From a virus (taxonomy: Duplodnaviria > Caudoviricetes): a stretch of 50,318 nt of DNA. The stretch is taken from the IMG/VR virus record IMGVR_UViG_3300045282_000259, positions 1-50,318 of that record; one strand, written 5' to 3'. The notes under the pieces were generated by a model. The model searched no databases. It worked only from the letters and a program-made list of their open reading frames with translations, and was not told where the DNA came from. The position numbers were made by a program, and so were the translations under genes. Below, piece by piece: positions 3,615 to 50,318 of this stretch (positions are counted from its first letter, which is position 1; every line of letters begins with the position of its first letter).

Positions 3615-5681
3615 TCATCCAAAAGCTCCTGACCCGATTTCGGTCTCACCCTTCTTGGTGAGCTTGTATTTGCCGTTGCGGTGTTTGCTGACAAAACTGA
3701 ACTCGAGCAGGCTCTTTATAATGCGCTGCACCTTTGACCGGCTTGGCCGGCCCTCATTAACGAACCCGCATCGGACGGCGATCTGCTCAAACGTGGCGTT
3801 GGGACTGGCAGCCATAATCTTGAGCACCCGGTTTTCGTCATTCTCGAGTTTGCGCCGACCTTCCTCCATGGTGAGGTCGGCAACCGGAACGGCAACCACG
3901 GACGGCATCAGCCTGCCGTCGGCGTCATGAACCCGCACGCTGTCCGCCATTCGAAGCTCGAAGGCCAGCGGCTCGAACTCTGGCCCGCGGAACTTGCCCA
4001 GCCAATGCAGGCTGACCTGCCTTTCGGCGTCAGCCCACAGCGTCAAGTTCCCATCCACCTCATTGAGGAAAGCGGACCCTCCCATAGGCAGCAAATTGTC
4101 TTGGGCGGCGTTCTTGATGGGATGGCAGTTGACCAGCACGGCGGGCTTGCCGTGCAGGAAGGTCAGCTCCCTAAGCAGGCGAGCATAGGCGCCCTGCTGG
4201 CTGTTGGAGTTGGTTTCATCGCCAGGGAAGTAAGCCGCGGCGGTGTCGACAATTACCAGCACCAGGTCGTCGATGGCGTCAGCTTCCGCCCGGATCTCGA
4301 CCATTCGGGTGGCGATATTGACCACGCCGGCGATGAACCGCATTTTGAGCTGTTCCGGCACAAAACCATAGGCCTCGCCCAGCACCAGGAACCGGGCCCG
4401 GATATCGTCTGGATTCTCGCCGGCGAGGAGCAGCACCGTGCCCTGCTTGACAGCTCGACCGTGCATGTTCTCGGCGCGCGCCACGCATTGCGCCACATAC
4501 ATGGCCACCGCGGTCTTGCCGTGCCCGGTGCGGGCCGTCAGGCTGTACAGATAGCCGCGCTGCAATATGCCGTCGATGAGATAGGCGGGCGGCGTAAAGC
4601 CATCGATGAACTGCTCGGCGTTGAGCAATAGCGGCAACGGCTGACCGGTCTTGGGATCGATCGGCGGTGGCTGTGGCGGTGGCTCATCTTTGGGCTTTGG
4701 ATTGGGCTTAGCCGCCTCCGCGACCATGCGAGGCGATCCCCAGTGGCGTAGGGTGGCGCGCCATTTTTGCCGGAACGCGGTGGGCCCTCGCCCTTCTCGC
4801 TCCAGCCCCTCGAATTTGGTGACGCCTATGATGCGACTGGTGACCCGGCGCTCGTAGATCTCGTAGGCCTTCTCGGCCGCGGGTAGCCACACCTCTATGG
4901 TGGGAGGTATTGGGCTTTGCCGGTACAGTTCCAGCACCGCGCGCCAAATCACGTTTCGCATCACCTTCTCACGGCCGTCCTGGACGTTGCCAAAGCCGTC
5001 ATAGTCACTTCCAGGCGAGGCGGTGTGTTCGTGCGGCGTACTGCCCTGGTCGCCTCCGTAGGCCCCCGCCAGCGCCTCTACAGCGTCCAGCAACCATGGC
5101 TCGGCGATGGCGATAGGGATCTCCCACGGCGCACAGCCTGGCGCCCATTGGTAATGCCGGCCGCTTTCGTGGAGACTTGCTGGCATGACGGCAAAGCCGG
5201 CCTGTCCGCGGATATCGATGCCTAGCGAGGTGCGGTTGGTGGGGACGTGATAGTTCGTCGGAGCGCGGAACAGTTTTTGCCGTCCGCCGCCACCGGTTTG
5301 CTGCTCGGCGGTTTCCGGATTTATGTTGTTGTTTTCGACGCTGATGAGGCCGCGCCACCATTGGTCGGCTTGCGGTCCTTTGTGGTCGTCGAAATCGAGC
5401 ACAAACACGTTGCCGCTGGCTTCGCCCGTGACGATGCCAAGATTGTCACGTGTGACATGCTCGCCGCCGGGGGCGTACCAGCGATCGAACGTGGTTTGCG
5501 GCGCAAGCTTGTGGTGATACTCGGTCCACTCCGACAGCTTGGGGCGTTTCCATGGCCCTGTGGTTTCGCCAGGTATCCAACTAGGAATCACCTGCAAGCC
5601 GAGGGTGCGGTACATGCAAGCCCAATCCGCCGGACTGGCGAAATCTGGATCGAAGTCCGGCGGGCAAAAGGCGTGGTGCAT
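3615..5681 (-). CDS. bifunctional Prim-Pol primase / RepA-like AAA helicase
   Basis: Prim-Pol motifs NLGIVTG, VLDFD, QTGGGGRQ, IDIRG; Walker A ARTGHGKT; Walker B LVIVDT. Confidence 0.9.
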   Translation of the reverse strand: MHHAFCPPDFDPDFASPADWACMYRTLGLQVIPSWIPGETTGPWKRPKLSEWTEYHHKLAPQTTFDRWYAPGGEHVTRDNLGIVTGEASGNVFVLDFDDHKGPQADQWWRGLISVENNNINPETAEQQTGGGGRQKLFRAPTNYHVPTNRTSLGIDIRGQAGFAVMPASLHESGRHYQWAPGCAPWEIPIAIAEPWLLDAVEALAGAYGGDQGSTPHEHTASPGSDYDGFGNVQDGREKVMRNVIWRAVLELYRQSPIPPTIEVWLPAAEKAYEIYERRVTSRIIGVTKFEGLEREGRGPTAFRQKWRATLRHWGSPRMVAEAAKPNPKPKDEPPPQPPPIDPKTGQPLPLLLNAEQFIDGFTPPAYLIDGILQRGYLYSLTARTGHGKTAVAMYVAQCVARAENMHGRAVKQGTVLLLAGENPDDIRARFLVLGEAYGFVPEQLKMRFIAGVVNIATRMVEIRAEADAIDDLVLVIVDTAAAYFPGDETNSNSQQGAYARLLRELTFLHGKPAVLVNCHPIKNAAQDNLLPMGGSAFLNEVDGNLTLWADAERQVSLHWLGKFRGPEFEPLAFELRMADSVRVHDADGRLMPSVVAVPVADLTMEEGRRKLENDENRVLKIMAASPNATFEQIAVRCGFVNEGRPSRSKVQRIIKSLLEFSFVSKHRNGKYKLTKKGETEIGSGAFG

Positions 5682-14473: not shown

Positions 14474-15796
14474 ATGCCCCAGCTTACCGTCAAACTCTGT
14501 GCCCAGCCGGTCGCCAAGCAGACCAAATACTTCGATGAAAAATGCCCCGGCCTCTATGCTGGTGTCGGCCCCAAGGGGAGGGTGACCTTCTTCTACAAGT
14601 TCTGGAACAAGCAAATCGGCAAGCAAGAAACGGTTGAGATCGGCCGCTGCGAGCAGGACCAGTTGACCGCCGAGGTCATCAATCTTGTTCGTGCCGATGC
14701 GCAGGATAGAAGTTCCAGGATCAAGCGAGGCCTGGTCAGTCAAGTCAAGGTGCGACACGTTCAACAGAGGACCGAGATCGGCGGGGCTAGCGTCGATCGC
14801 GTAATCGATGACTTCGTTGCCTACATCAGCAAGCCGGTCAAACAGCCGGACGGCGAGATGCGCCCGCGGCTGGCAAGCTGGAAAAATATCGAAGGCTTTC
14901 TGGAACGCGAAGTGCGGCCCGACATCGGCAAGTATATTGCCGCCGAGGTTACCAACAGCGACATTGCCCGCATTCAGAAACGGATCGCTATTCGCTCGAC
15001 CAGCGGCGCGCGACAAGTTCGCAGCGTCATGATTCGTCTGTTCAAGTTCGGTGCCGAGGCAGACAACCCTTATGGTCTGAAGATCAGTCCGTGCCACAAC
15101 CTGCCCAAGGTTGACAAGGAGCACCCATGTACGCGTGTTCTCAATGTCGAGGAGATCCGGACGCTATGGTGGGGCCTCGACGATCCTAGCCTGCCGTGCA
15201 TCCGGTCAGTGGCGCTCGCCATTAAGTTCGAACTGGTTTCGATGCTGCGGACTGCCGAGTTCCGCCAAGCTCGACGCAGCCAGATCGATGGCTTTGGAAC
15301 CTCGACGCCGGTCCTTCGTGTTCCAATGAAGCTTGTGAAGAAGCGCCGCGCGATCCATCAGCCGCTCAACAGTCTCGCGGTCGAGATCGTCAACGAGGCG
15401 CTCTCGTTACACAATAACGACGTGATCTTCTCGCCTCGCATGCTCGACCCGGAGGCCGTGCTGAACCGCAGCGCGCTCAACCATGCCCTCGCCGGCAAGG
15501 AGGGCCGTCCTGGAATCATCCAGCTTCTCGGCATGAAACGGTTTACCCCGCACGATCTGCGCCGCACCGCGGCGACACTAGCGAGCGATATCGGTTGCAC
15601 CGATGCCGAAATCGCCAAGTGTCTTGATCATGCCAAAGGAGCGGGCGAGAACGTCGCGGAGGTTCCGTCCGTAACCGGGCGCGTCTATATCCAGTCGGAG
15701 CACCTCGACAGAAAGCGCAAGGTTCTCAGCGCCATCGACGCTGCGTTGCGAGAGATTATTGGCCCGCGTCCAAGGAAGCTCAAAATGGTTGCTTAA
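14474..15796 (+). CDS. int: tyrosine integrase with N-terminal arm-binding domain
   Basis: YFDEKCPGLY arm domain; catalytic R (LRTAE), HDLRR, LDH, VY. Confidence 0.93.
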   Translation: MPQLTVKLCAQPVAKQTKYFDEKCPGLYAGVGPKGRVTFFYKFWNKQIGKQETVEIGRCEQDQLTAEVINLVRADAQDRSSRIKRGLVSQVKVRHVQQRTEIGGASVDRVIDDFVAYISKPVKQPDGEMRPRLASWKNIEGFLEREVRPDIGKYIAAEVTNSDIARIQKRIAIRSTSGARQVRSVMIRLFKFGAEADNPYGLKISPCHNLPKVDKEHPCTRVLNVEEIRTLWWGLDDPSLPCIRSVALAIKFELVSMLRTAEFRQARRSQIDGFGTSTPVLRVPMKLVKKRRAIHQPLNSLAVEIVNEALSLHNNDVIFSPRMLDPEAVLNRSALNHALAGKEGRPGIIQLLGMKRFTPHDLRRTAATLASDIGCTDAEIAKCLDHAKGAGENVAEVPSVTGRVYIQSEHLDRKRKVLSAIDAALREIIGPRPRKLKMVA

Positions 15797-17737: not shown

Positions 17738-18009
17738 GTGATCTTGTAAAGCGGCTTCGCAATTTTGAAGGAATGCCTGAGGCGCAGGGATGGAATATGA
17801 TTGAAGCTGCCGACCGCATCGAGGCGCTGGAAGCGGCGCTGCGGGAGCCAACCATCGTCACCGACGAGATGGTGATGGCTGGTGCAAAAGCCATGGTCAG
17901 ACTTGGTCATGACCATCGGACAAGGGGCGAGCCGATGCCGACCCGGCTTCAAGAAGCCCGCGCCTGCCTGATCGCTCACGCCGCGCTCGATAAGGACACA
18001 GGGCAATGA
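17734..18009 (+). CDS. cassette gene, Ead/Ea22-like coiled-coil scaffold
   Basis: MSDLVKRLR...EAADRIEALEAALRE...AALDKDTGQ. Confidence 0.7.
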   Translation: MSDLVKRLRNFEGMPEAQGWNMIEAADRIEALEAALREPTIVTDEMVMAGAKAMVRLGHDHRTRGEPMPTRLQEARACLIAHAALDKDTGQ

Positions 18010-18278
18010 GCTTGCTGACAGAACTTCTCAAGGGCTACGCCGACCCCACGTACAAGACAGAGCTACTCGGCAAGGGAAGCCTCGATAATACAATCTCCGA
18101 TCTCTTGGAGGATGCAGTGGAGGCTGGCCATCGCATCGAAGCGCTGGAAGCCGCGCTGCGGGAGATAGCAACCACTGTCTCAACGTCGCGGGAGCCGTTT
18201 CTTATAAAGCTGGCTGTCATAGGCAATGTAGCCCGCGCCGCGCTCGATAAGGACACGGGGCAATGCCGGGAACCGTAG
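18006..18278 (+). CDS. cassette gene, coiled-coil scaffold
   Basis: LTELLKGYADPTYK N-terminus; RIEALEAALRE; ARAALDKD. Confidence 0.65.
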   Translation: MSLLTELLKGYADPTYKTELLGKGSLDNTISDLLEDAVEAGHRIEALEAALREIATTVSTSREPFLIKLAVIGNVARAALDKDTGQCREP

Positions 18279-18511
18279 ACATGAGGTGGCGCAGCCCGGT
18301 TTGCGACGCGTGTCGGCGCGAAGTCGATTATGTCCGCGGCTCGGTCTGGCACGGCGACAGCCGGATTTGCACGGAATGCTTCATGCAGTGGTACGACCCC
18401 GATAACAGCACGTTCGATAATTGCGATCCGGTTGAACTCGGCAACTACATTCGCAGCAAGCACGGCTTGCCACCATTACCAGCCGCGCTCGATAAGGACA
18501 CAGGGAAATGA
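18263..18511 (+). CDS. cassette gene with CxxC...CxxC
   Basis: starts at a repeat ATG; ends AALDKDTGK. Confidence 0.65.
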   Translation: MPGTVDMRWRSPVCDACRREVDYVRGSVWHGDSRICTECFMQWYDPDNSTFDNCDPVELGNYIRSKHGLPPLPAALDKDTGK

Positions 18512-18792
18512 GCAACAAACATCAATTAGGTGATGCACCAATCCAGCCCGAATTTTACGTGAAGATGAATGACCTCGCCAAGGTACTCGATAAATTTTTA
18601 AATGGCGAAGCAAAGGGCAAGGACCGCAAGAACGGTTTTGTGCTGATGGTGTACGCATTTGGCAATCTAGCTAGCGGCGATGCGCGCTGCAATTACATCT
18701 CAAATGGTGCAGATCGCAGGGATGTAGTCACCTTGATGAAGGAAATGATTGCCCGTTTTGAAAGCCAGCCAAAACAATCCGGTAAGGCATGA
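18508..18792 (+). CDS. cassette gene, conserved phage protein
   Basis: GFVLMVYAFG...CNYISNGADRRDV. Confidence 0.75.
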   Translation: MSNKHQLGDAPIQPEFYVKMNDLAKVLDKFLNGEAKGKDRKNGFVLMVYAFGNLASGDARCNYISNGADRRDVVTLMKEMIARFESQPKQSGKA

Positions 18793-18833
18793 TCGCCCGC
18801 GCCGCGCTCGATAAGGACGCAAGACTTTTATGA
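18789..18833 (+). CDS. 14-aa minigene made only of the junction repeat (empty cassette)
   Basis: ATGATCGCCCGCGCCGCGCTCGATAAGGACGCAAGACTTTTATGA = MIARAALDKDARLL; ATGA overlaps at both ends. Confidence 0.55.
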   Translation: MIARAALDKDARLL

Positions 18834-19375
18834 CAATCCAGTTCAGCCGATGCTTCGCAATGCCGAACGCTGAAACATTCAGCGTTAAGCCCATTGGCGA
18901 GTTCGTGAAGCGATACCTGGCCATGACGAAGGTTAGCGTTGATCCATTCGCTTGTAACCGGGATTGGGCAACCTACACGAACGACATTAATTGCAACACG
19001 TTAGCGCAAACACACATGGATGCCGAAGAATTTCTGTTTCACTTGGCTCATCGTGGCGTGATTGCTGATTTAGTGCTGTTCGATCCACCTTATAGTCCCA
19101 GGCAGGTTTCCGAGCACTACAAAGCCGCTGGCCGCAAAGTCATTGCGGAAGATACACAGAACGGCAGACTTTATCGCCGAGTTCGTGATGCCATTGGTTG
19201 CATCGTCCGCCCTGGCGGGGTCGTGCTTTCGTTTGGCTGGCAATCGGTCGGCATGGGCATTGGTCGCGGTTATGAGCTAATTGAAACGATGCTCGTTGTT
19301 CACGGCGGTGGCCACAACGACACGATCTGTATTGCCGAAATCGCCCGCGCCGCGCTCGATAAGGAAAAAAAATGA
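18830..19375 (+). CDS. putative DNA amino-methyltransferase (N6A/N4C)
   Basis: VDPFA SAM-binding motif; LFDPPYS catalytic motif; tail IARAALDKEKK. Confidence 0.75.
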   Translation: MTIQFSRCFAMPNAETFSVKPIGEFVKRYLAMTKVSVDPFACNRDWATYTNDINCNTLAQTHMDAEEFLFHLAHRGVIADLVLFDPPYSPRQVSEHYKAAGRKVIAEDTQNGRLYRRVRDAIGCIVRPGGVVLSFGWQSVGMGIGRGYELIETMLVVHGGGHNDTICIAEIARAALDKEKK

Positions 19376-19647
19376 GACTGACAGAACTTCTCAAGGGCTA
19401 CGCCGACCCCACGTACAAGAAAGAGATCATGGGCTACGTCTTTGCTACCTCGTCATGTATCGGCTGCGGCCGACTGTTCTCGTACAACCCGCACCGCGTT
19501 CCGTCATGCAGCGCGGTGACCGGCAAGCGCGAGCCGATCTGCCTGGATTGCGTCGAGCGGGTAAACCCGGAAAGGGTGAAGAAGGGTCTCGATCCGATTG
19601 TGATCCAGCCCGACGCCTACGAGCCATTGCCGGAGGACGAGCTGTGA
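19372..19647 (+). CDS. cassette gene, Zn-binding
   Basis: CIGCG...FSYNPHRVPS...PICLDC; N-terminus shared with the gene at 18006. Confidence 0.7.
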   Translation: MRLTELLKGYADPTYKKEIMGYVFATSSCIGCGRLFSYNPHRVPSCSAVTGKREPICLDCVERVNPERVKKGLDPIVIQPDAYEPLPEDEL

Positions 19648-20018
19648 GCGAGTGGCCGAGAAGCGAGTGGCCGAGATACTACATCCTCGTTGATCGTCTG
19701 CCGGTCGCGGTTGACTTCATGACGTGGGCACCCTGGTTCGGGAACATCGACGCCCGGCGTGTCGCGCGAACCGTTATCGACGCACACTGCTCGGTCTCAA
19801 CCGTGTTCTGCGGCTTCGACCACAATTTTGGCGGCGGCGAGCCGCTCCTGTTCGAAACTCTGATCTTCGGCGGCCCGCTCGCTCACGAGATGTGGCGCTA
19901 CTCAACCTATGCCGAGGCCGAAGGCGGGCACGCCGAAGCCGTGACGCAAGCCAAGATCGCAGCGGCCAAGATCAAATCGATTGCAGACAATGCCGGAGCG
20001 AAAAATCAGAAGCCATGA
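19644..20018 (+). CDS. conserved phage protein
   Basis: GTGA overlap; VSTVFCGFDH...PLLFETLIFGG...RYSTYAEAEGGH. Confidence 0.7.
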   Translation: MSEWPRSEWPRYYILVDRLPVAVDFMTWAPWFGNIDARRVARTVIDAHCSVSTVFCGFDHNFGGGEPLLFETLIFGGPLAHEMWRYSTYAEAEGGHAEAVTQAKIAAAKIKSIADNAGAKNQKP

Positions 20019-20521
20019 GACTGTACGACCTTAAATCGCTTATCGAGTTCGCATCCGTGCAGGCGGAAAAATTCTTCCGCAGGAACGGCGTTCTATACCT
20101 GATGTATCACTGCATCAAGGCCGATGGCGAGACCGCGATCCTTACCCCGCCGCCAGACTGCGACAAGGACACGTCCGTCGCTCTGATGAAGGCGTGGTTC
20201 GCGATCGAGAACGTCGACCGCTACGTCTTCATGGACGAGGCGTGGATCGTTGATGATAGGCGCGGCCAGATCGGACTGGATATTGCGAAGGTCAAGCGCG
20301 AAGGCGTGCGCAACCATCCAGAGCGCCGCGAGATAGTGCTGTTCTCGGCTGAGAACATCCGTGGCGAGCAACTGATGGCGACACGCTTCATCTTGCGCCC
20401 GGAGGTCGGCAAGCCGAAGCTCTCGCCGCTCAAGATCGATGAGCCGTTCGACCACAGCGAGGGCCGCATGGTCGGAATGCTCAACTGGAGCGCCGTGCTC
20501 AATAAGGACGCCAGCGAATGA
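20015..20521 (+). CDS. cassette gene, hypothetical
   Basis: ATGA overlap; ends in the degenerate repeat AVLNKDASE. Confidence 0.7.
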   Translation: MRLYDLKSLIEFASVQAEKFFRRNGVLYLMYHCIKADGETAILTPPPDCDKDTSVALMKAWFAIENVDRYVFMDEAWIVDDRRGQIGLDIAKVKREGVRNHPERREIVLFSAENIRGEQLMATRFILRPEVGKPKLSPLKIDEPFDHSEGRMVGMLNWSAVLNKDASE

Positions 20522-20823
20522 GTGAACTTGTAAGACGTTTACGTAAACAGGCTTCTGACGCCATCGATTGGGATGGCGAAACGTTAAAGAGGTGGGATGA
20601 AATCCGGGGCATGATTGAAACGCGTAAGGGCAGCGACCTTCCACGGCTGATGTTCGAAGGCCTGATTGAGAATTTAACCGAACTCATAATCGAAGCCGCC
20701 GCCCGTATCGAGGCGCTGGAGACGGCGCTGCGGGAGATCGAAGATTGTCTCGACTATGTCAAAGACAAAGGCGTTGTATGGAAGATCGCCCGCGCCGCGC
20801 TCGATAAGGACAATGAGAAATGA
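20518..20823 (+). CDS. cassette gene, coiled-coil scaffold
   Basis: MSELVRRLR...EAAARIEALETALRE...IARAALDKDNEK. Confidence 0.7.
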   Translation: MSELVRRLRKQASDAIDWDGETLKRWDEIRGMIETRKGSDLPRLMFEGLIENLTELIIEAAARIEALETALREIEDCLDYVKDKGVVWKIARAALDKDNEK

Positions 20824-21023
20824 ATGATGAGCATAACATCATTCAAACCGAGAATTGGCGACGGTATGCGGCTTGGGATCTGGTGCGCCAAGCCGTCATT
20901 GATTTACGCCGGGGCGGCGACATTACTGGCGTGACGACCGAGAAGATGAAGCGATTGTTTCCCGAGATTCAGACTGGGTATGAAACGCTTCGCGCCGCGC
21001 TCGATAAGGACGCGGGGAAATGA
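20820..21023 (+). CDS. cassette gene, hypothetical
   Basis: bounded by repeats; ends RAALDKDAGK. Confidence 0.65.
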   Translation: MNDEHNIIQTENWRRYAAWDLVRQAVIDLRRGGDITGVTTEKMKRLFPEIQTGYETLRAALDKDAGK

Positions 21024-21229
21024 ACGATACTCTTGTCGACCGTTTGCGTTTTCACAGCGCGACATTGGATCGATCGCTGTGCATGGAAGCCGCATCCCGC
21101 ATCGAGGCGCTGGAGGCGGCGCTGCAAAGGATTGTCGGGATAAGCGAACATTACGTCGTTATGCCGTCAGTCTTGTGTGAAGCGATACAGGGCGCCCGCG
21201 CGGCGCTCGATAAGGACGCAGGACAATGA
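21020..21229 (+). CDS. cassette gene, coiled-coil scaffold
   Basis: LVDRLR...EAASRIEALEAALQRI...ARAALDKDAGQ. Confidence 0.7.
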   Translation: MNDTLVDRLRFHSATLDRSLCMEAASRIEALEAALQRIVGISEHYVVMPSVLCEAIQGARAALDKDAGQ

Positions 21230-21822
21230 TTGCGCTGCTCGACACCAGCCACGACCTTGACGACTGTGCCGCCGAGCTTGACTGCGCAGTAGGACAATTG
21301 CTGACGCCGCTGACCCGTTTCCGGTTACGCGATCCTGTGAGACCATGGGCGATCGACAACGGAGCCTTTGCCGGGTTCGATGTCGACGCATTCATGGCGT
21401 TGCTGGCGCGCGAGTTCGTACACCGGCAACACTGCCTGTTTGTTACCGTGCCCGACGTGGTCGGCTCGGCACGGCGAACGCTGGAAGTATTCGAACACTG
21501 GCGGGCACGACTTGGCGGCTGGCGGCTGGCACTGGCATGTCAGGACGGTCAGGAAGATCTGCCGGTGCCGTGGGGCCGGATCGATGCGGTATTCATCGGC
21601 GGCTCAACCAACTGGAAAGGCTCGCTTGCTGCGGTGCAGATCATCCGGGCGGCGCAATTGCTCGGCAAGCACGTCCACGTCGGCCGCGTCAATGACGGCG
21701 TGCGTTGGAAGCATTTCGAGCAACTCGGCGTCGATACCATCGACGGCACCGGCATTTCCCGCTACTCGAATATGCGTGAGGCGGTCGCCGACCGGCACCG
21801 GCAACTGGAATTTCAGACATGA
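21226..21822 (+). CDS. TIM-barrel protein, possibly TGT/DpdA-like base-exchange family
   Basis: DNGAF, VPDVVG, QDG, FIGGS, HVGRVN and DGTG motifs; family call tentative. Confidence 0.5.
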   Translation: MIALLDTSHDLDDCAAELDCAVGQLLTPLTRFRLRDPVRPWAIDNGAFAGFDVDAFMALLAREFVHRQHCLFVTVPDVVGSARRTLEVFEHWRARLGGWRLALACQDGQEDLPVPWGRIDAVFIGGSTNWKGSLAAVQIIRAAQLLGKHVHVGRVNDGVRWKHFEQLGVDTIDGTGISRYSNMREAVADRHRQLEFQT

Positions 21823-22043
21823 ACAAGCATCCAGATTATCGCGGTGTTTACGTTCGCACCTCACCGCGACCGTCACCCTATTTCGCTCGTCTCAGCCGCA
21901 AAGGCCAATGGATATTTTCGGCATACTTCAAGCAGCCAGAAGATGCGGCAAAAGCCTATGACCAAATCGCAGGTTCGATATGGGGCAAGCATGCAACTCT
22001 GAACTTTCCACGCGCCACGCTCGATAAGGACACGGGGAAATGA
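21819..22043 (+). CDS. stand-alone AP2 DNA-binding domain
   Basis: YRGV...YFARL...PEDAAKAYD...WGKHATLNFP plus the repeat tail. Confidence 0.8.
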   Translation: MNKHPDYRGVYVRTSPRPSPYFARLSRKGQWIFSAYFKQPEDAAKAYDQIAGSIWGKHATLNFPRATLDKDTGK

Positions 22044-22312
22044 AGTTTTTCATCGATACAATAACTCCATGTCCAAGTGAAGTGCGTGTCGGCAATGTAT
22101 ATCACGTCAAAGGCGGTTACGGCACAAAGGCCGGGCACATGATGGTCTTGATGGCTATTACGGAAGGCGAGACTTGCCTTCTTATGGTCGTAGATAAACA
22201 TGGCAATCCCGTTGGGATCACCAATTACGGAATGCACTCTCTCGATGAACGCATGCCGATAGCTTTTTGTGAAGGTCTGGACGCTTTGGAGTTTCGTATC
22301 AGGAGCTTGTAA
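22040..22312 (+). CDS. cassette gene, hypothetical
   Basis: starts at a repeat ATG. Confidence 0.65.
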   Translation: MKFFIDTITPCPSEVRVGNVYHVKGGYGTKAGHMMVLMAITEGETCLLMVVDKHGNPVGITNYGMHSLDERMPIAFCEGLDALEFRIRSL

Positions 22313-22325
22313 GGACGTAAGAGAG

Positions 22326-22667
22326 ATGAGCGACCGCAAAAGCGCCGAACGCGCTATCGAGGCTTTGAGAAACCCCGACCCATCGTTGGCGCATGTCGTA
22401 AACACTGTCAGGCAATCACTCGCTGAAGTAGTTGAAGACCAACAAAACCGCATCGAGGAGCTGGAGGCGGCGCTGCAACGCATCGTACAATGGAGCGAGG
22501 CTTATCCGCTTGACATCTTCCCAGAGCCTGACTGGAAGAAAGCGCGGTCGCTGCTTGAAGCTGGCGGCATTACCCTTGATGCGGTCTCCGCGCATTGCAT
22601 GCGGCACGTCATCGAAGGCGTCGGCAAGATTGCCGGAGCCGCGCTCGATAAGGACGCAGGGAAATGA
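22326..22667 (+). CDS. cassette gene, coiled-coil scaffold
   Basis: RIEELEAALQRI...WSEAYPLDIFPEP...AALDKDAGK. Confidence 0.7.
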   Translation: MSDRKSAERAIEALRNPDPSLAHVVNTVRQSLAEVVEDQQNRIEELEAALQRIVQWSEAYPLDIFPEPDWKKARSLLEAGGITLDAVSAHCMRHVIEGVGKIAGAALDKDAGK

Positions 22668-22906
22668 GCGAACCGGTAGAGATCAGGCGCAATCCGGATC
22701 AGTCGATTGACGAAATCTGTATTGATGGCGGTAACGTTCACATCGAGCAGATGGACGGTAACAGTTGGTTCATGGGCGTCGAGGCGAAAGACGGTTCATA
22801 TTGGCAATTCTGGTTCGGTGCTAAGAACCGCAAATCTCTTGTGGAATTCAGACATGCCGAAATGACGCCAGCCCGCGCCGCGCGCGATAAGGACGCAGGG
22901 AAATGA
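22664..22906 (+). CDS. cassette gene, hypothetical
   Basis: IDEI...VHIEQMD...WFMG; ends ARAARDKDAGK. Confidence 0.7.
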   Translation: MSEPVEIRRNPDQSIDEICIDGGNVHIEQMDGNSWFMGVEAKDGSYWQFWFGAKNRKSLVEFRHAEMTPARAARDKDAGK

Positions 22907-46226: not shown

Positions 46227-46546
46227 GCGCTCTGTGCCACTGCTCGTCCGCCAACTTCATGGCAAACCTTAAAACTGGGACTATTGACCTTGTGCGCCGC
46301 CATTTTGTGCAGCGCCCAGGCCGTTCCGAACGCCGCCAACAGATAACTATCCAACGCTGAATAGACCTTGTCCGGCATCGACCGCATGATCATCTCGATG
46401 CACCCACGGGCGTCGTCAGATAAATGCTCCGGAATGAAAGGCTCGCCTTGAGCCTCGATTCCAACATCTCGAACGGCCTCTTTGCACGGGAATCCCTCAA
46501 GAGCTTCCAAATACACCGATTTCTTCCGTGGACCTCGTTTTCCCAT
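46037..46546 (-). CDS. terS: terminase small subunit (P27 family)
   Basis: MGKRGP...PEHLS...LGLDPASRAAL. Confidence 0.85.
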   Translation of the reverse strand: MGKRGPRKKSVYLEALEGFPCKEAVRDVGIEAQGEPFIPEHLSDDARGCIEMIMRSMPDKVYSALDSYLLAAFGTAWALHKMAAHKVNSPSFKVCHEVGGRAVAQSAWVTVLSKQALIMASLGDRLGLDPASRAALKLPGARQQKSQFAGLLGQTALLSSSRNSPSLLE

Positions 46547-46574
46547 ATGGAACAACCTTCTATTCACCAAAACC

Positions 46575-46680
46575 CGTAACCTCCGGCCGCTAAAATGGCT
46601 GCCCCCATGCGGTCTGGGACCTCCAAGCCCGGATTTTAGCGATCCCCCCCCCGGTCAATCGATCGAGAGACGCGCCCCGC
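46575..46680. other. putative cos/packaging region
   Basis: intergenic between HNH and terS; GCTAAAAT/ATTTTAGC inverted repeat (46589/46633) and a C9 run. Confidence 0.45.
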
Positions 46681-46762
46681 ATCACTTTGATTTTGCTAAC
46701 GATCTTGCGTTATAGCCGCGCAGAGATAGCGGCGCTGCGATCGAGCGCCGATCCTACTCGCA

Positions 46763-47086
46763 TCAATCTACATTCGAAGGCCAACCATCGAGGCCGACCC
46801 TACCCCTCCCCCGTCCCCCGCCTTCGATGCGTTGCTGATCTGAGTCATGACACTGCTTACACAATGATGATAGTGCACCATGCCAGAAGAGATCGGCATC
46901 ACCACGATGAGGCACGATGTGGTTGGCAACAGTAGCTGGCATGTCTATGCCTCTGCTCTTGCACATGCAGCACATAGGCTCACGCCTTAGCTGTGCTGCC
47001 CGTACGTTCTGCCAGCGTTGCGTCTTGTACCAACGTCGCCAGGGTTGCTCATCACGCTTTGCATCATAGGCTTTGCGTGCATCCAT
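46763..47086 (-). CDS. packaging-associated HNH endonuclease (HK97 gp74-like)
   Basis: WY...W...EPMCCMC...VANHIVPHRGD...LCKQCHD...GLDGWP. Confidence 0.9.
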   Translation of the reverse strand: MDARKAYDAKRDEQPWRRWYKTQRWQNVRAAQLRREPMCCMCKSRGIDMPATVANHIVPHRGDADLFWHGALSSLCKQCHDSDQQRIEGGGRGRGRVGLDGWPSNVD

Positions 47087-47128
47087 TGTTTTATTCGCAG
47101 AATGTTTGAAGATAATTCTACTTTCCGG

Positions 47129-47157
47129 TTGACAAGTAGGAAAGGCCGCACTAGATT
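47129..47157 (+). promoter_or_regulatory. sigma70-type promoter for the early cluster
   Basis: TTGACA-17-TAGATT with an AT-rich upstream element. Confidence 0.75.
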
Positions 47158-47234
47158 GCTGACATCGAAACGCAGAACGCCGTTCGGCCTAATTCTCTCC
47201 GAGTGTTGAAGCACTCGCAAACCAAAGGATCGAA

Positions 47235-47333
47235 ATGACAATCAATCGCGCTGTGTTTATCTTTCGAGCTGTGCTTACCGCGCAGGCCTTAAGCTTGTTC
47301 GCGTATGCCTCTTACGTGACGGCGGTTAACTAA
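47235..47333 (+). CDS. 32-aa hydrophobic peptide (not in ORF track)
   Basis: leader repeat plus ATG; MTINRAVFIFRAVLTAQALSLFAYASYVTAVN. Confidence 0.55.
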   Translation: MTINRAVFIFRAVLTAQALSLFAYASYVTAVN

Positions 47334-47378
47334 ATCCCTCGCGTGTTAAAGCACGCTCAAACCAAAGGACTAAACGCA

Positions 47379-47630
47379 ATGTTTGTTGTGATCTATGAAC
47401 CTTCCACCAATGTTACTCTGTACTCTCGCCGTATGGGCCCAAACGAAACAATGGATACTCGCAAGTTCGCAGACATGATTGCCGCTGAGTATGACCGCGA
47501 GATTGCCGAAGCAAACGGACATATCCCGAATTGTTGCGGAGATATCCGAGTCGAATTCCGCCCGCGCAAAAACGTGGCTTGGCACATCTGGAGCGGCGAA
47601 AGTTTCTACTTCAAACGCGACGACGACTAA
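47379..47630 (+). CDS. early hypothetical protein
   Basis: leader repeat plus ATG at 47379. Confidence 0.7.
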   Translation: MFVVIYEPSTNVTLYSRRMGPNETMDTRKFADMIAAEYDREIAEANGHIPNCCGDIRVEFRPRKNVAWHIWSGESFYFKRDDD

Positions 47631-47743
47631 ACCTAAACCAACATCGTTCCTATGCCCCGCAGCGAAAGCTTACGGGGCTTAGGGCATTAGGAACATCCGT
47701 TCCGCGAGTGTTGAAGCACTCGTCAAAACCAAAGGACCAAACA

Positions 47744-48550
47744 ATGCGCAACGCGCAAACGGCAACCTATGACTCCAAATCTCCGAACGGTTTTATCTTC
47801 TATCGTGGTCCGTCAATGCTAGACGGATCTCCCATTGTCGCCATTGCTACGCGCGTTACCAGCGCGTCAAAGAATTCAAAGACGGGTGCATTAGTCGCAA
47901 CCTATATCCTGCGCGATGACATCAACCCCGTTGATGCCGTTCGCCAAGGCTTGGACAAATCGGTGTGTGGCTCATGCGTTCATCGTGGCTGGTACGACGC
48001 AACCACGAATAGCTGGAAAGATCGTTCCTGCTACGTTGTGATCGGACAAGGACCGCTCGGCGTTTTCAATGGTTTCGAGCGTGACATCTATCCGCAGGTA
48101 TCTCCCGAACAGGCATGCGAGTGGTTAGCTGACCATGCCGTGAGGCTTGGTACCTATGGCGATCCCGCCGCCGTCCCTGCCGATGTTTGGCACGTCATGT
48201 TGCGCAAGGTGAAGGCGAAAGCAGGATACACGCACCAATGGCGCACGTTTCCCGAATTCAAACGCCATTGCATGGCATCATGCGACACGGCGGAGGAACA
48301 ACAAGCCGCAACAGCGTTAGGCTGGCGCACGTTCCGGACGCGGTTGCCGTTTGAGAACAAGCAATCAAACGAAATTGCCTGCCCGGCATCGATGGAAAAG
48401 GGCTATGCGACGACTTGTGCGCTCTGCAAAGCTTGCGGCGGCCGATCGGCAAAAGCAAAAACATCCATCACAATCATAGCTCACGGAGGAACCGGACAAA
48501 TTCGCGCCTATAACCGCACGCGCGCGCGACTAGATGCGGCTGCAGCTTAA
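47744..48550 (+). CDS. Cys-rich early phage protein (gp88-like, possible Fe-S/radical-SAM-related fold)
   Basis: leader repeat plus ATG; NSKTG, CGSC...CYV, VRLGTYGDPA, GYTHQW, CPA...CxxCxxC, IIAHG. Confidence 0.7.
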   Translation: MRNAQTATYDSKSPNGFIFYRGPSMLDGSPIVAIATRVTSASKNSKTGALVATYILRDDINPVDAVRQGLDKSVCGSCVHRGWYDATTNSWKDRSCYVVIGQGPLGVFNGFERDIYPQVSPEQACEWLADHAVRLGTYGDPAAVPADVWHVMLRKVKAKAGYTHQWRTFPEFKRHCMASCDTAEEQQAATALGWRTFRTRLPFENKQSNEIACPASMEKGYATTCALCKACGGRSAKAKTSITIIAHGGTGQIRAYNRTRARLDAAAA

Positions 48551-48697
48551 AATCTCAACTCTCAAACCAAAGGACCAAAACCAAATGGCAAAGACACAAA
48601 CCACGATTCGATTCTCGGTTACGCAATGCAGTACGACACTCTGCTGACCTGGGCCTGCGACCATGGCAACGGCGGCGCCGAATGCGGGGAGGACTAA

Positions 48698-48844
48698 ATG
48701 AAAAAACACGATGCCCTCTATAGCGTCGAATTGACGATTGACGAACTGAATCGATTGTATGCCGCAATACTCTATCGCGAAAACGATTCTGCGCTTGCGA
48801 GAAAACTCGAAAAAGCAATGATTGATGCAGGGAGGACTAAATGA
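48698..48844 (+). CDS. 48-aa hypothetical protein (not in ORF track)
   Basis: GGAGG RBS; ATGA-coupled to the gene at 48841. Confidence 0.6.
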   Translation: MKKHDALYSVELTIDELNRLYAAILYRENDSALARKLEKAMIDAGRTK

Positions 48845-49107
48845 AATATACCGATAAAAACGGCAAGCGCCGCGCCCATTATTGGGGTTTAGCTCGCCGT
48901 TGGTTACCGATATCAATCGACGCTGCGGAGCTCGAGCTAGCAACTGGCAAAGCATTGCCGGCCGAAACGGCAACTCCCGGTCAATCGGCCTATGAAGCGG
49001 ATTGCCTAAAAGAGCCGACATACAAAGACGGTTCACAGCGCAAACCATGGTCGGCATTGCCAGAGCACGCGCGCTATTCATGGGAACGGAATCCAACCCC
49101 GCGCTAA
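48841..49107 (+). CDS. early hypothetical protein
   Basis: GGAGG RBS; PTYKDGSQRKPWSALP...SWERNPTPR. Confidence 0.7.
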   Translation: MKYTDKNGKRRAHYWGLARRWLPISIDAAELELATGKALPAETATPGQSAYEADCLKEPTYKDGSQRKPWSALPEHARYSWERNPTPR

Positions 49108-49197
49108 CCCGTTCCACCATAGCTTTACGCCGCGCGCTGGTAACAGCTGCGCGGCTTAGGGCATTGCAAGAGATCACAAACCAAAGGACCTAACCAA

Positions 49198-49371
49198 ATG
49201 TATTGTGTCAATATTTATGATCCAAACGGCGTTTTGCGCTTTTGGGTCGGAGGTAAAACAAAAGGCGAAGCAATCGAACAAGCACGATGCAAGGTGGCGG
49301 AACATTGTCTCGCAAATCCAGATGAACCGCCCGCAGACAAATGGCACCTAGGCAATGTCATGCGGCAATAA
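49198..49371 (+). CDS. 57-aa hypothetical protein (not in ORF track)
   Basis: leader box plus ATG; MYCVNIYDPNG... Confidence 0.6.
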   Translation: MYCVNIYDPNGVLRFWVGGKTKGEAIEQARCKVAEHCLANPDEPPADKWHLGNVMRQ

Positions 49372-49482
49372 CGGCACCGCACCATGCCTGAAATCATCGG
49401 CCCCGCTAGTGTTGAAGCACAAGCGGGGCCTAACGCTATTCCGCAACACATGAGACCAAAGGACCAAAGGACCAAAACTCAC

Positions 49483-49695
49483 ATGTCACGAAAAGCGCTG
49501 TCCAACCATGACGCGACCAAAGCGGCCGCGCAATCCCTGTTGCGCCAAGGCCTGGCGACCTATGCGGAGATCGCCGCACTATCGGGCTATTCCCGCCAGA
49601 CGATCCGCTTCTTTGCGGGCGAACTAGGCGCGGAAAACGCACGCGAGGAACATCTAGCCAAGCTTTGGGACCGCGCGTTGCGGCGCAACGAATAG
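49483..49695 (+). CDS. small HTH DNA-binding protein
   Basis: leader box plus ATG; LLRQGLATYAEIAALSGYSRQTIRFF. Confidence 0.7.
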   Translation: MSRKALSNHDATKAAAQSLLRQGLATYAEIAALSGYSRQTIRFFAGELGAENAREEHLAKLWDRALRRNE

Positions 49696-49904
49696 GACGG
49701 CCCATGGCGCGCTTTATCCGCTTAGCGCTACTGGAATAGCCCGACTCTGGATAGCCCTTCACGGGGCTTCCCAGAGCGTTCTGCTATGGTGTGGCGAAAA
49801 GCTAAGTCTTTTCAACGGCTTGCCTATGCACGCAAACGTGTACTTCCGCACTGCACAATCGGTCCGTTTCGGCCGGATCGGACCATTGTGGGCCGCCCCC
49901 CCCG

Positions 49905-50020
49905 TCCGCGTTTATGAGCCCCATCCGCGTTTATGAGCCCCAAATGGGGTATCCGCGTTTATGAGCCCGCTACCCCCGTCCGCGTTTATGAGCTGCGATC
50001 CACCCCGTCCGCGTTTATGA
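49905..50020. repeat. five direct copies of TCCGCGTTTATGA
   Basis: copies at 49905, 49924, 49952, 49979, 50008; a hairpin (49855-49890) and a C8 run lie alongside. Confidence 0.92.
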
Positions 50021-50035
50021 ATTTCGATTTTCGTC

Positions 50036-50131
50036 TCAGCCCAGTACGATCGCCCAGAACGCCAGCATTATCGCCAGTACGACAGCTGCGTAGACCACCA
50101 TCGCCCATGGGCTGTTGAGATAGTCCCACAA
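50036..50131 (-). CDS. 31-aa membrane peptide (not in ORF track)
   Basis: TTG start after AAGGA; WDYLNSPWAMVVYAAVVLAIMLAFWAIVLG. Confidence 0.4.
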   Translation of the reverse strand: MWDYLNSPWAMVVYAAVVLAIMLAFWAIVLG

Positions 50132-50152
50132 TTCGGTAACCCGTCCTTCAGC

Positions 50153-50275
50153 TCAGCGCCCGCGCTTGGTCGGCCTGCTCAACGTGCGAACCACAGTCAC
50201 CTTGTCCTTGCGCTTAATGGCCCGACGCAACGCGGCTCGGTCATCTGCCGTCCGCTTCTTCGGCTTGGCTTTCAT
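50153..50275 (-). CDS. 40-aa basic peptide spanning the circular junction
   Basis: GGAGG RBS; MKAKPKKRTADDRAALRRAIKRKDKVTVVRTLSRPTKRGR. Confidence 0.5.
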   Translation of the reverse strand: MKAKPKKRTADDRAALRRAIKRKDKVTVVRTLSRPTKRGR

Positions 50276-50318
50276 GTGAGACCTCCGTCTCCACCGTAGT
50301 CTTACGGATAACGCAGGA
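50192..50318. repeat. 127-bp terminal direct repeat (copy 2)
   Basis: identical to 1-127. Confidence 0.95.

Follow-up and report, generated by a model that had tools for sequence, protein, structure and literature searches.

What reads a short repeat that a phage sets before the start codons of its genes, and is it read as RNA or as DNA? The question is raised by positions 47129 to 49695 of the virus record IMGVR_UViG_3300045282_000259, the whole of which (50,318 bases) was analysed as the window. On the + strand of this region, a promoter-like site is followed by a cluster of small genes in which two elements recur: a leader box with a Shine-Dalgarno (SD) core, found before six starts, and a small hairpin, found in four of the six leaders. 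The explanation that fits best, and which we hold tentatively, is that the two form a modular messenger RNA (mRNA) leader in which the hairpin is bound by a protein, most likely, as with the Aca regulators, the helix-turn-helix (HTH) protein that the operon itself encodes. An earlier sequence-only reading had noted a promoter, hairpins, leader boxes and linkers here, and re-reading of the sequence found every one of them in its place.

A Leader Box before Six Starts

The leader box, searched as ACCAAAGGA, has seven matches in the window, all on the + strand (47221, 47361, 47728, 48566, 49180, 49455 and 49463), against a chance mean of 0.18; none of 100 shuffles reaches seven. The boxes precede the starts at 47235, 47379, 47744, 48585, 49198 and 49483, the last of which has a tandem pair, and this bears out the repeated ribosome-binding leader that the sequence-only reading had placed before six starts. 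Box 1 (AAACCAAAGGAT, 47219–47230) lies 5 nt before the ATG at 47235, and the tandem boxes (AGACCAAAGGACCAAAGGAC, 49453–49472) lie 11 nt before the ATG at 49483. The motif search places box 2 (AAACCAAAGGAC) at 47359–47370, box 3 at 47726–47737 and box 5 at 49178–49189. Neither box 5 nor box 4 (48564–48575) has a small hairpin. Box 4 is homologous to a leader, CTCAAAGGATAAACCCAATG, at the same position in the related phage locus L007, the only orthologous position open to comparison. With two mismatches allowed, AAACCAAAGGAC gains extra matches outside 47.2–49.5 kb at chance level only. The complement of the box, which could act as an antisense regulator, was not found; matches on the − strand need two mismatches and are at chance level.

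The surroundings of the box are as uniform as its sequence. An AAAGGA core stands 5–11 nt before the ATG in the six leaders, and the 25 nt upstream of the six starts are 72–84% A+C. The predicted energy for opening positions −18 to +10 has a mean of 6.0 kcal/mol in the six leader genes versus about 10 kcal/mol in 32 other genes hand-picked from a crude gene list of the same phage (Mann-Whitney p = 0.0016), a difference to which the lower G+C of the region contributes. The SD is predicted to be unpaired with a probability of 0.63–0.84. From these predictions we conclude that the box is probably an extended, deliberately open SD leader. This phage group seems to favour uniformity in its leaders; in L022, a phage sharing the NusG paralog described below, at least six genes are preceded by a common leader of that phage's own, CTCAAAGGAGATCAA.

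A Hairpin with a Fixed Top

The pattern GTGTTRAAGCAC, with at most one mismatch, has four matches in the window, all on the + strand (47203, 47343, 47708 and 49409), where the chance mean is 0.36 and none of 100 shuffles reaches four. Every copy is intergenic and lies 5' of a start codon, and all four hairpins are present in the minimum-energy folds of their regions. Hairpin 1 (CGAGTG-TTGAAG-CACTCG, 47200–47217) lies in the 5' untranslated region (UTR); about 35 nt separate it from the inferred transcription start and 17 nt from the first ATG. Hairpin 2 (GCGTG-TTAAAG-CACGC, 47341–47356), 7 nt past the stop codon of a 32-amino-acid (aa) open reading frame (ORF), carries an A-T to C-G pair change and a G-to-A change in the loop. 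Hairpin 3 (GCGAGTG-TTGAAG-CACTCGT, 47704–47723) has G.U as its outermost pair. Hairpin 4 (GGCCCCGCT-A-GTG-TTGAAG-CAC-A-AGCGGGGCC, 49399–49430) sets the same top, above an A.A mismatch, on an unrelated and perfect 9-bp GC-rich lower stem.

The hairpin is thus divided into a top of 12 nt, GUG-UUGAAG-CAC, with one change in 48 positions, and lower stems that differ and still pair. Pairing holds in 24 of 28 stem cells, and two of the seven pairs have changed on both sides (A-U to C-G and G-C to U-A); when the registers are slid by 1–3 columns, pairing drops to 14–54% of cells. The sequence-only reading had proposed an RNA element with a conserved loop and a covarying stem. Inside the genome this finds modest support in the two changed pairs and in the 9-bp stem of copy 4. 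The 15 related-phage loci described below supplied no further copies. In the predicted folds, the tetraloop is UGAA or UAAA and is closed by a U.G pair. When the genome is searched with a covariance model of the four copies, these score 29–32 bits and are the only ones recovered, the next match being at 12 bits. Rfam has no match at the gathering score anywhere in the window; with E up to 1, the sole result in 47100–49800 is a partial SECIS_4 at 19.6 bits versus a gathering score of 38, a chance match.

Several features give the hairpin a direction and a strand. The TTGAAG centre is not symmetric, all four copies have the same orientation, and the G.U pairs (the loop-closing U.G of all four copies and the outer G.U of copy 3) are possible on the + strand only. 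Taken with the fixed top, they suggest an RNA hairpin with a sequence-specific reader rather than a duplex operator. The gap from hairpin to box is 1–3 nt in three copies (AAACCAAAGGA) and 24 nt in copy 4, and this variability means that hairpin and box are separable parts.

The Operon and a Candidate Reader

The promoter, TTGACA-17-TAGATT (47129–47157, + strand), is sigma70-like, with 10 of 12 positions matched, and is flanked by short inverted repeats. It is the best promoter-like site in 46500–50318 and the single 10/12 site on the + strand of that region, where two 9/12 sites also occur, neither of them at the repeats. We infer that the operon is transcribed from it. On the + strand, the promoter is followed by hairpin 1, a box and a hydrophobic 32-aa ORF (47235–47333), and then by hairpin 2, a box and an 83-aa gene (47379–47630). 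After a long hairpin, A, come hairpin 3, a box and the gene of a 268-aa viral protein (47744–48550), whose function is not assigned (phrog_2554; the nearest Atlas clusters are partly DUF7227/GP88). A box alone then precedes a 20-aa gene remnant (48585–48647), a 232-nt insertion with a 48-aa gene, and an 88-aa gene (48841–49107). A second long hairpin, B, is followed by a box alone and a 57-aa gene (49198–49371), and finally by hairpin 4, the doubled box and a 70-aa HTH-like gene (49483–49695), the last gene before the record's repeat region. Neither the 32-aa ORF nor the 57-aa gene has a family match. At 47118–47144, the inverted repeats CTACTT/AAGTAG and CTTTCC/GGAAAG bracket the −35 hexamer; they form a possible operator, and their sequence is unlike that of the hairpin.

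The 70-aa protein is the best candidate reader of the hairpin. It matches HTH_28 below threshold (E = 7e-4, 20 bits versus a cut-off of 25), and its structure model, with a predicted local distance difference test score (pLDDT) of 76, has three helices, the last one long. It has six homologues, 64–84% identical, and no relatives in the viral contigs. One homologue, P0005 (69% identical), was annotated with extra N-terminal residues that correspond to translated upstream DNA, and this extension (IGPVSVEALAGP...PKDHKDQSQM) can be set against the same frame in the window (IGPASVEAQAGP...PKDQRTKTHM). Read with as few base changes as possible, the two differences would replace a C-G pair by U.G and restore pairing at the A.A mismatch. 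This relative has apparently retained hairpin 4 and the doubled box upstream of its HTH gene. The sequence-only reading had linked the repeat to the HTH protein as an operator; the link finds some support, as hairpin and leader seem to travel with the gene, while the duplex-operator form of the link is disfavoured by the asymmetric loop and single orientation. Contigs from two other soil runs align across 49331–49758.

The HTH protein is preferred as reader because the layout of the operon (a strong promoter, a 5' UTR hairpin, small genes without assigned function and an HTH-like gene last) matches that of acr-aca operons, in which, in the available part of the report, Aca1 and Aca2 bind hairpins in their own 5' UTR (PMC13551039). 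As described there, the likeness covers the gene content, with a strong promoter ahead of small accessory genes and a small HTH-like gene closing the operon, and the hairpin itself: about 20 nt long, ending about 20 nt before the first start, with one three-pair tier conserved and another covarying. Hairpin 1 ends 17 nt before the ATG at 47235 and lies about 35 nt past the inferred, unmapped transcription start. Compared with that description, the present hairpin differs in recurring before internal cistrons, and the inverted repeats at the promoter differ from it in sequence; in addition, the HTH protein belongs to no known Aca family, no gene is a known anti-CRISPR, and binding is a prediction.

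In the mechanism that we propose, one promoter would drive an operon of small accessory genes bearing a modular mRNA leader. Each independently translated block would open with an A/C-rich, nearly structure-free stretch consisting of the box AAACCAAAGGAC (SD core AAGGA), a further 5–11 nt and the ATG, and this composition would make the start sites uniformly open and efficient. The small hairpin, present in four of the six leaders, would display its fixed top, the GUG/CAC closing pairs and the UUGAAG loop, probably a U.G-closed UGAA tetraloop, while the lower stem is left free to vary. The fixed top would be a sequence-specific protein-binding site, with the 70-aa HTH protein at the operon end as its best candidate reader. 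That protein may bind the polycistronic mRNA from which it is itself translated, and perhaps also the DNA form of the inverted repeat, and so feed back on the translation or stability of the hairpin-led cistrons, as Aca1 and Aca2 do on anti-CRISPR operons. The leader-plus-gene units may double as portable cassettes. A fuller version, speculative and with rather little chance of holding in all its parts, is that the HTH protein reads one top before four cistrons including its own, giving cistron-by-cistron feedback in which the dual DNA/RNA mode of Aca1 and Aca2 is extended operon-wide, and that the same units serve as joints for cassette swapping.

Several results weigh against the leader as a regulatory binding site. 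The 70-aa protein has neither an Aca family match nor a Pfam match above threshold, and a fold search of its model against solved structures returned nothing better than E = 0.37. Shuffles reach the observed pairing values in 26 of 500 and 10 of 500 trials (2–5%). The hairpin has four copies in one genome, so that the conservation of its top may partly reflect recent copying, and two of the six leaders have no hairpin. The comparison with P0005 derives from a protein translation in which third codon positions are not known. Finally, both motifs are absent from all 15 distinct related-phage loci with 268-aa or 83-aa homologues, and the composite pattern of hairpin plus box has no match in the viral, genome and metagenome collections.

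The Element among Related Phages

Homologues of the 268-aa protein (48–92% identical) were found at four viral loci and two further metagenome loci, the metagenome search having returned three loci of which one is the L007 contig again; the genome collection holds none. Homologues of the 83-aa protein (42–71% identical) occur at nine viral loci, all with unrelated leaders. In L005 and L007, the 268-aa gene follows a terminator and a promoter of its own. Run over 15 of 18 loci, the covariance model found nothing better than E = 0.9; L007, L013 and L018 were left out for their size or as duplicates of searched loci. Reading frames through hairpin 3, used in two protein searches of the relatives' upstream translations, gave no match. 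A looser pattern returned nine stretches in viral contigs, with one copy of each motif apiece and several being the same sequence in different contigs; on reading, these were judged chance or coding matches and rejected as real elements. As far as these searches reach, the element is private to this phage and its near kin.

Related loci have arrangements of their own. L019 (~1470–1990) and L020 (~990–1700) carry a repeated motif, GATTGCAGCC.ATG, near several gene starts, and in L005 the promoter of the 268-aa gene is surrounded by three TGAGCA-N-TGCTCA operators.

Alternative Explanations

The first alternative, possible but doubtful, is a passive RNA element without a dedicated reader, which would insulate the ribosome site or protect a processed 5' end while the long hairpins protect upstream 3' ends, a punctuation of processing and stability like that of T7. 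Hairpins do punctuate phage polycistronic RNA, as at the RNase III junctions of the T7 early transcript. The intergenic order found here (stop codon, long covarying hairpin, small hairpin, open leader) agrees with this explanation. Hairpin A (47647–47685, + strand) is predicted to fold in three tiers under a GAAA cap, and hairpin B (49122–49162, + strand) carries a GUAA cap; both are followed by TTAGGGCATT. They belong to a family of long, three-tier hairpins with GNRA caps and TTAGGGCATT-like tails that also includes copies in L005 (~3630–3670) and L011 (~2927–2967). Across the four sequences there are 15 pairs, 8 with compensatory changes, and no U-tract. Contigs from runs X2 and X4 match about 47651–47692 only, with unrelated flanks, so the long hairpin element exists in other contexts.

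The small hairpin fits a passive role less well. Conservation in a passive element should fall on structure, whereas here it falls on a sequence of 12 nt whose 6-nt loop is not palindromic; the stems, of 5–7 bp, are too short for RNase III; and the leaders are indeed predicted to be open, but the two that lack a hairpin are predicted to be equally so. In the nut sites of lambda, a protein reads boxB, a short hairpin whose loop is conserved. To our knowledge, nut sites are not placed before each ribosome site, and no boxA-like sequence was seen beside the hairpins on reading 47160–47240.

The second alternative, an unlikely one, is that the repeats are good ribosome-binding sites and nothing else, footprints of an operon assembled from cassettes that recombined at shared junctions or from one leader copied within the genome. 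The unrelated leaders of the 268-aa and 83-aa homologues in other phages agree with it, and leader 4, with its L007 homologue at the orthologous position, could be the source copy. It is also supported by the 232-nt insertion (48621–48852), defined by alignment to L007 and by a contig of run X3 that skips the same 232 nt, joining 48620 to 48853. This linker-bounded cassette, absent from both, contains a 23-aa ORF (48626–48697), the 48-aa gene (48698–48844) and both copies of a linker, and it interrupts a gene that is intact in L007. The 20-aa remnant is the N-terminal end of that gene and the 88-aa gene its C-terminal part, with 32 of 37 residues identical to the 55-aa protein of L007; the second linker copy supplies the cut gene with a new SD and ATG. 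The further linker that the sequence-only reading had seen repeated, ATGC.GGGAGGACTAAATGAAA, is present in two copies (48682–48703 and 48825–48846); a search for its core GGGAGGACTAAATGAAA gives these two matches only (48687 and 48830), where a mean of 0.04 would be expected by chance. The copies stand in different reading frames of their upstream ORFs, so the repeat is a nucleotide signal and not a conserved peptide.

A second and larger linker family, GCCGCGCTCGATAAGGACRCGGGNAATG, precedes 13 small + strand genes in 17986–22894 and likewise agrees with operon assembly. Searched as CTCGATAAGGAC with at most one mismatch, it has 13 matches on the + strand of that region; the copy at 18807 is intergenic, so here too the repeat is a nucleotide signal, not a conserved C-terminal peptide. 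For the hairpins, similarity between short contigs and the window sets in at 47201 and 49379, level with hairpins 1 and 4 or slightly ahead of them, but the unlike ends that precede it are only 11–13 letters long. The earlier suggestion that the leaders are recombination joints is thus borne out for the ATGC.GGGAGGACTAAATGAAA linker by the 232-nt insertion or deletion, while for the hairpin leaders the pattern is suggestive only. In the same measure, the leader-plus-gene units may behave as portable cassettes. Assembly alone leaves two observations without explanation: the lower stems remain paired after divergence, and in copy 4 an identical top stands on another stem, with 24 nt between hairpin and box.

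Repeated modules between small accessory genes are known from the PeSL cassettes of T4-type phages, which, as far as the available parts of two papers describe them (PMC2839356, PMC4122927), are intergenic stem-loops that mark gene gain and loss. The same descriptions make PeSLs composite promoter-terminator motifs, whereas here there is one good promoter-like site per cluster and the repeat is fused to a ribosome site. No early promoter of the PeSL kind accompanies each repeat, since no promoter-like site lies at the repeats in 46500–50318.

The third alternative, distinctly unlikely, takes GTG-N6-CAC as a duplex-DNA operator for the 70-aa HTH protein or another repressor, acting as a roadblock to RNA polymerase inside the operon. 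In its favour, the motif forms an inverted repeat, the gene for an HTH-like protein lies next to copy 4, and hairpin 4 is apparently conserved together with that gene. Yet no copy overlaps the promoter, the first lying about 35 nt past the inferred start, and the asymmetric TTGAAG centre points in the same direction in four of four copies, each just before a ribosome site. Complementarity also extends into flanks that differ between copies, which a duplex operator does not need, and the C-to-U change deduced in the P0005 relative would break the dyad symmetry while keeping the RNA pairing.

It is highly improbable that the hairpin is instead the loading site of the NusG paralog, allowing readthrough of the terminator-like long hairpins: although the genome encodes such a protein, hairpin 1 lies in the 5' UTR with terminator-like hairpins downstream, and the available excerpt on LoaP (PMC12691694) provides a precedent, the hairpin is found in neither of two phage loci with 61–62% identical paralog homologues (both partial contigs; best match 14.2 bits, E = 0.9), NusG paralogs are not known to load at one hairpin per cistron, and the paralog's own conserved non-coding leader is a more natural target.

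The paralog itself, which the sequence-only reading had named as a possible partner of the hairpin, does exist; the link between the two is not supported. It is encoded on the − strand at 1436–2098 and matches PF02357 at 29.8 bits versus a cut-off of 22.2 in an hmmscan of the 220-aa protein; a whole-genome family scan had missed it at the first-look filter, a false negative. It was not found in five related records by a search that recovers the copy in its own genome. A non-coding leader directly 3' of the gene (1435 to ~1250, − strand) is shared with L021 (10516–10720), where it runs directly into HNH and packaging genes; this conserved leader is a candidate loading or antitermination site for the paralog. 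According to the same excerpt (PMC12691694), LoaP depends on a small RNA hairpin with a tetraloop, which lies in the leader of the operon ahead of a terminator. The present locus resembles that arrangement in having a small tetraloop hairpin in the leader ahead of terminator-like hairpins and in encoding a specialised NusG paralog. It differs from the arrangement described in loop type, the LoaP loop being UNCG, in having one hairpin per cistron, and in that phages with homologues of the paralog are without the hairpin; no hairpin in the two paralog loci, both partial contigs, scores better than E = 0.9.

Comparison with Start-Associated Repeats

With a protein-read mRNA leader as the preferred account, the nearest analogue is found in the start-associated repeats SAS and ESAS of Cluster K mycobacteriophages; the kind of element is known and the present sequence is new. 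The function of SAS and ESAS was still without explanation in 2025, as far as the available parts of two papers tell (PMC3203893, PMC12699233), and the comparison was made with their text descriptions. By those descriptions, SAS resemble the present boxes in several ways: each kind is short and asymmetric, contains the SD core, and recurs in a single orientation, a few bases upstream of ATG starts, in genes that are non-structural and belong to unrelated families; each is also private to one phage group, and in about half of the cases an inverted repeat precedes the box. Here, seven of seven boxes lie on the + strand, 5–11 nt before six ATG starts.

The differences are equally plain in those descriptions. 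The box sequence is unrelated: the SAS consensus GGGATAGGAGCCC (13 bp, at most two departures) has one match in the window, on the − strand at 349–361, which is at chance level (mean 0.92; at least one match in 65 of 100 shuffles). Seven copies lie in one operon here, versus 11–19 across half a genome. ESAS are imperfect 17-bp inverted repeats with a 4–13 bp spacer, whereas the present hairpins have stems of 5–7 bp (13 bp in copy 4) and a fixed 6-nt loop. Departures from the ESAS consensus are reported not to support RNA pairing, whereas here the stems pair, with two compensatory pairs.

The Phage Record

The window takes in an entire virus record, including a terminal repeat of 127 bases; it is a complete temperate phage of 50.2 kb, with an integrase at 14474–15796. 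The sequencing runs that contain this DNA are labelled soil metagenomes. Genes for primase/polymerase, helicase and resolvase lie on the − strand at 3.6–10.6 kb, and those for HNH, small terminase and large terminase on the − strand from 47086 to 44538. The leader operon adjoins the HNH gene on its right, on the opposite (+) strand. A search for the host found no tRNA genes in the window and no prophage relatives in the genome collection. The listed sequencing runs include DNA contigs but no RNA runs covering 47100–49800, and the early timing given to the gene cluster in the sequence-only reading is an assumption.

The + strand island runs on from 47165 across the terminal repeat to about 1223. 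ORFs at 188–394, ~400–597, 594–830 and 1005–1223 are similar to + strand genes located after the 268-aa gene in L005, L007 and L019, so the island sits, oppositely oriented, between the NusG-paralog leader and the HNH and terminase genes. Late transcription from the NusG-paralog leader would have to cross this island antisense; no − strand promoter-like site was found in 46500–50318. Between the HTH gene and the terminal repeat, at 49900–50020, lie five direct repeats with the core CCGCGTTTATGA and periods of 19 and 29 nt. They look like iterons, and may mark an origin or a site for partition or packaging. L007 carries another array, built of CTCGAGA units, at the equivalent place ahead of its operon.

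Significance

Start-linked phage repeats of the SAS/ESAS kind have been known since 2011 without a mechanism. The operon described here offers a small and clean case, with a single promoter and six leaders, four of which have a hairpin, and the operon itself encodes a candidate reader. The combination of a fixed top with a free lower stem points to a reader. The question of what reads a start-associated repeat, and whether it does so as RNA or as DNA, looks testable in this operon. The 232-nt cassette, in turn, brought its own ribosome site and start codon and so re-starts the gene that it cut. Shared linkers of this sort illustrate how phages may gain small genes without silencing their neighbours.

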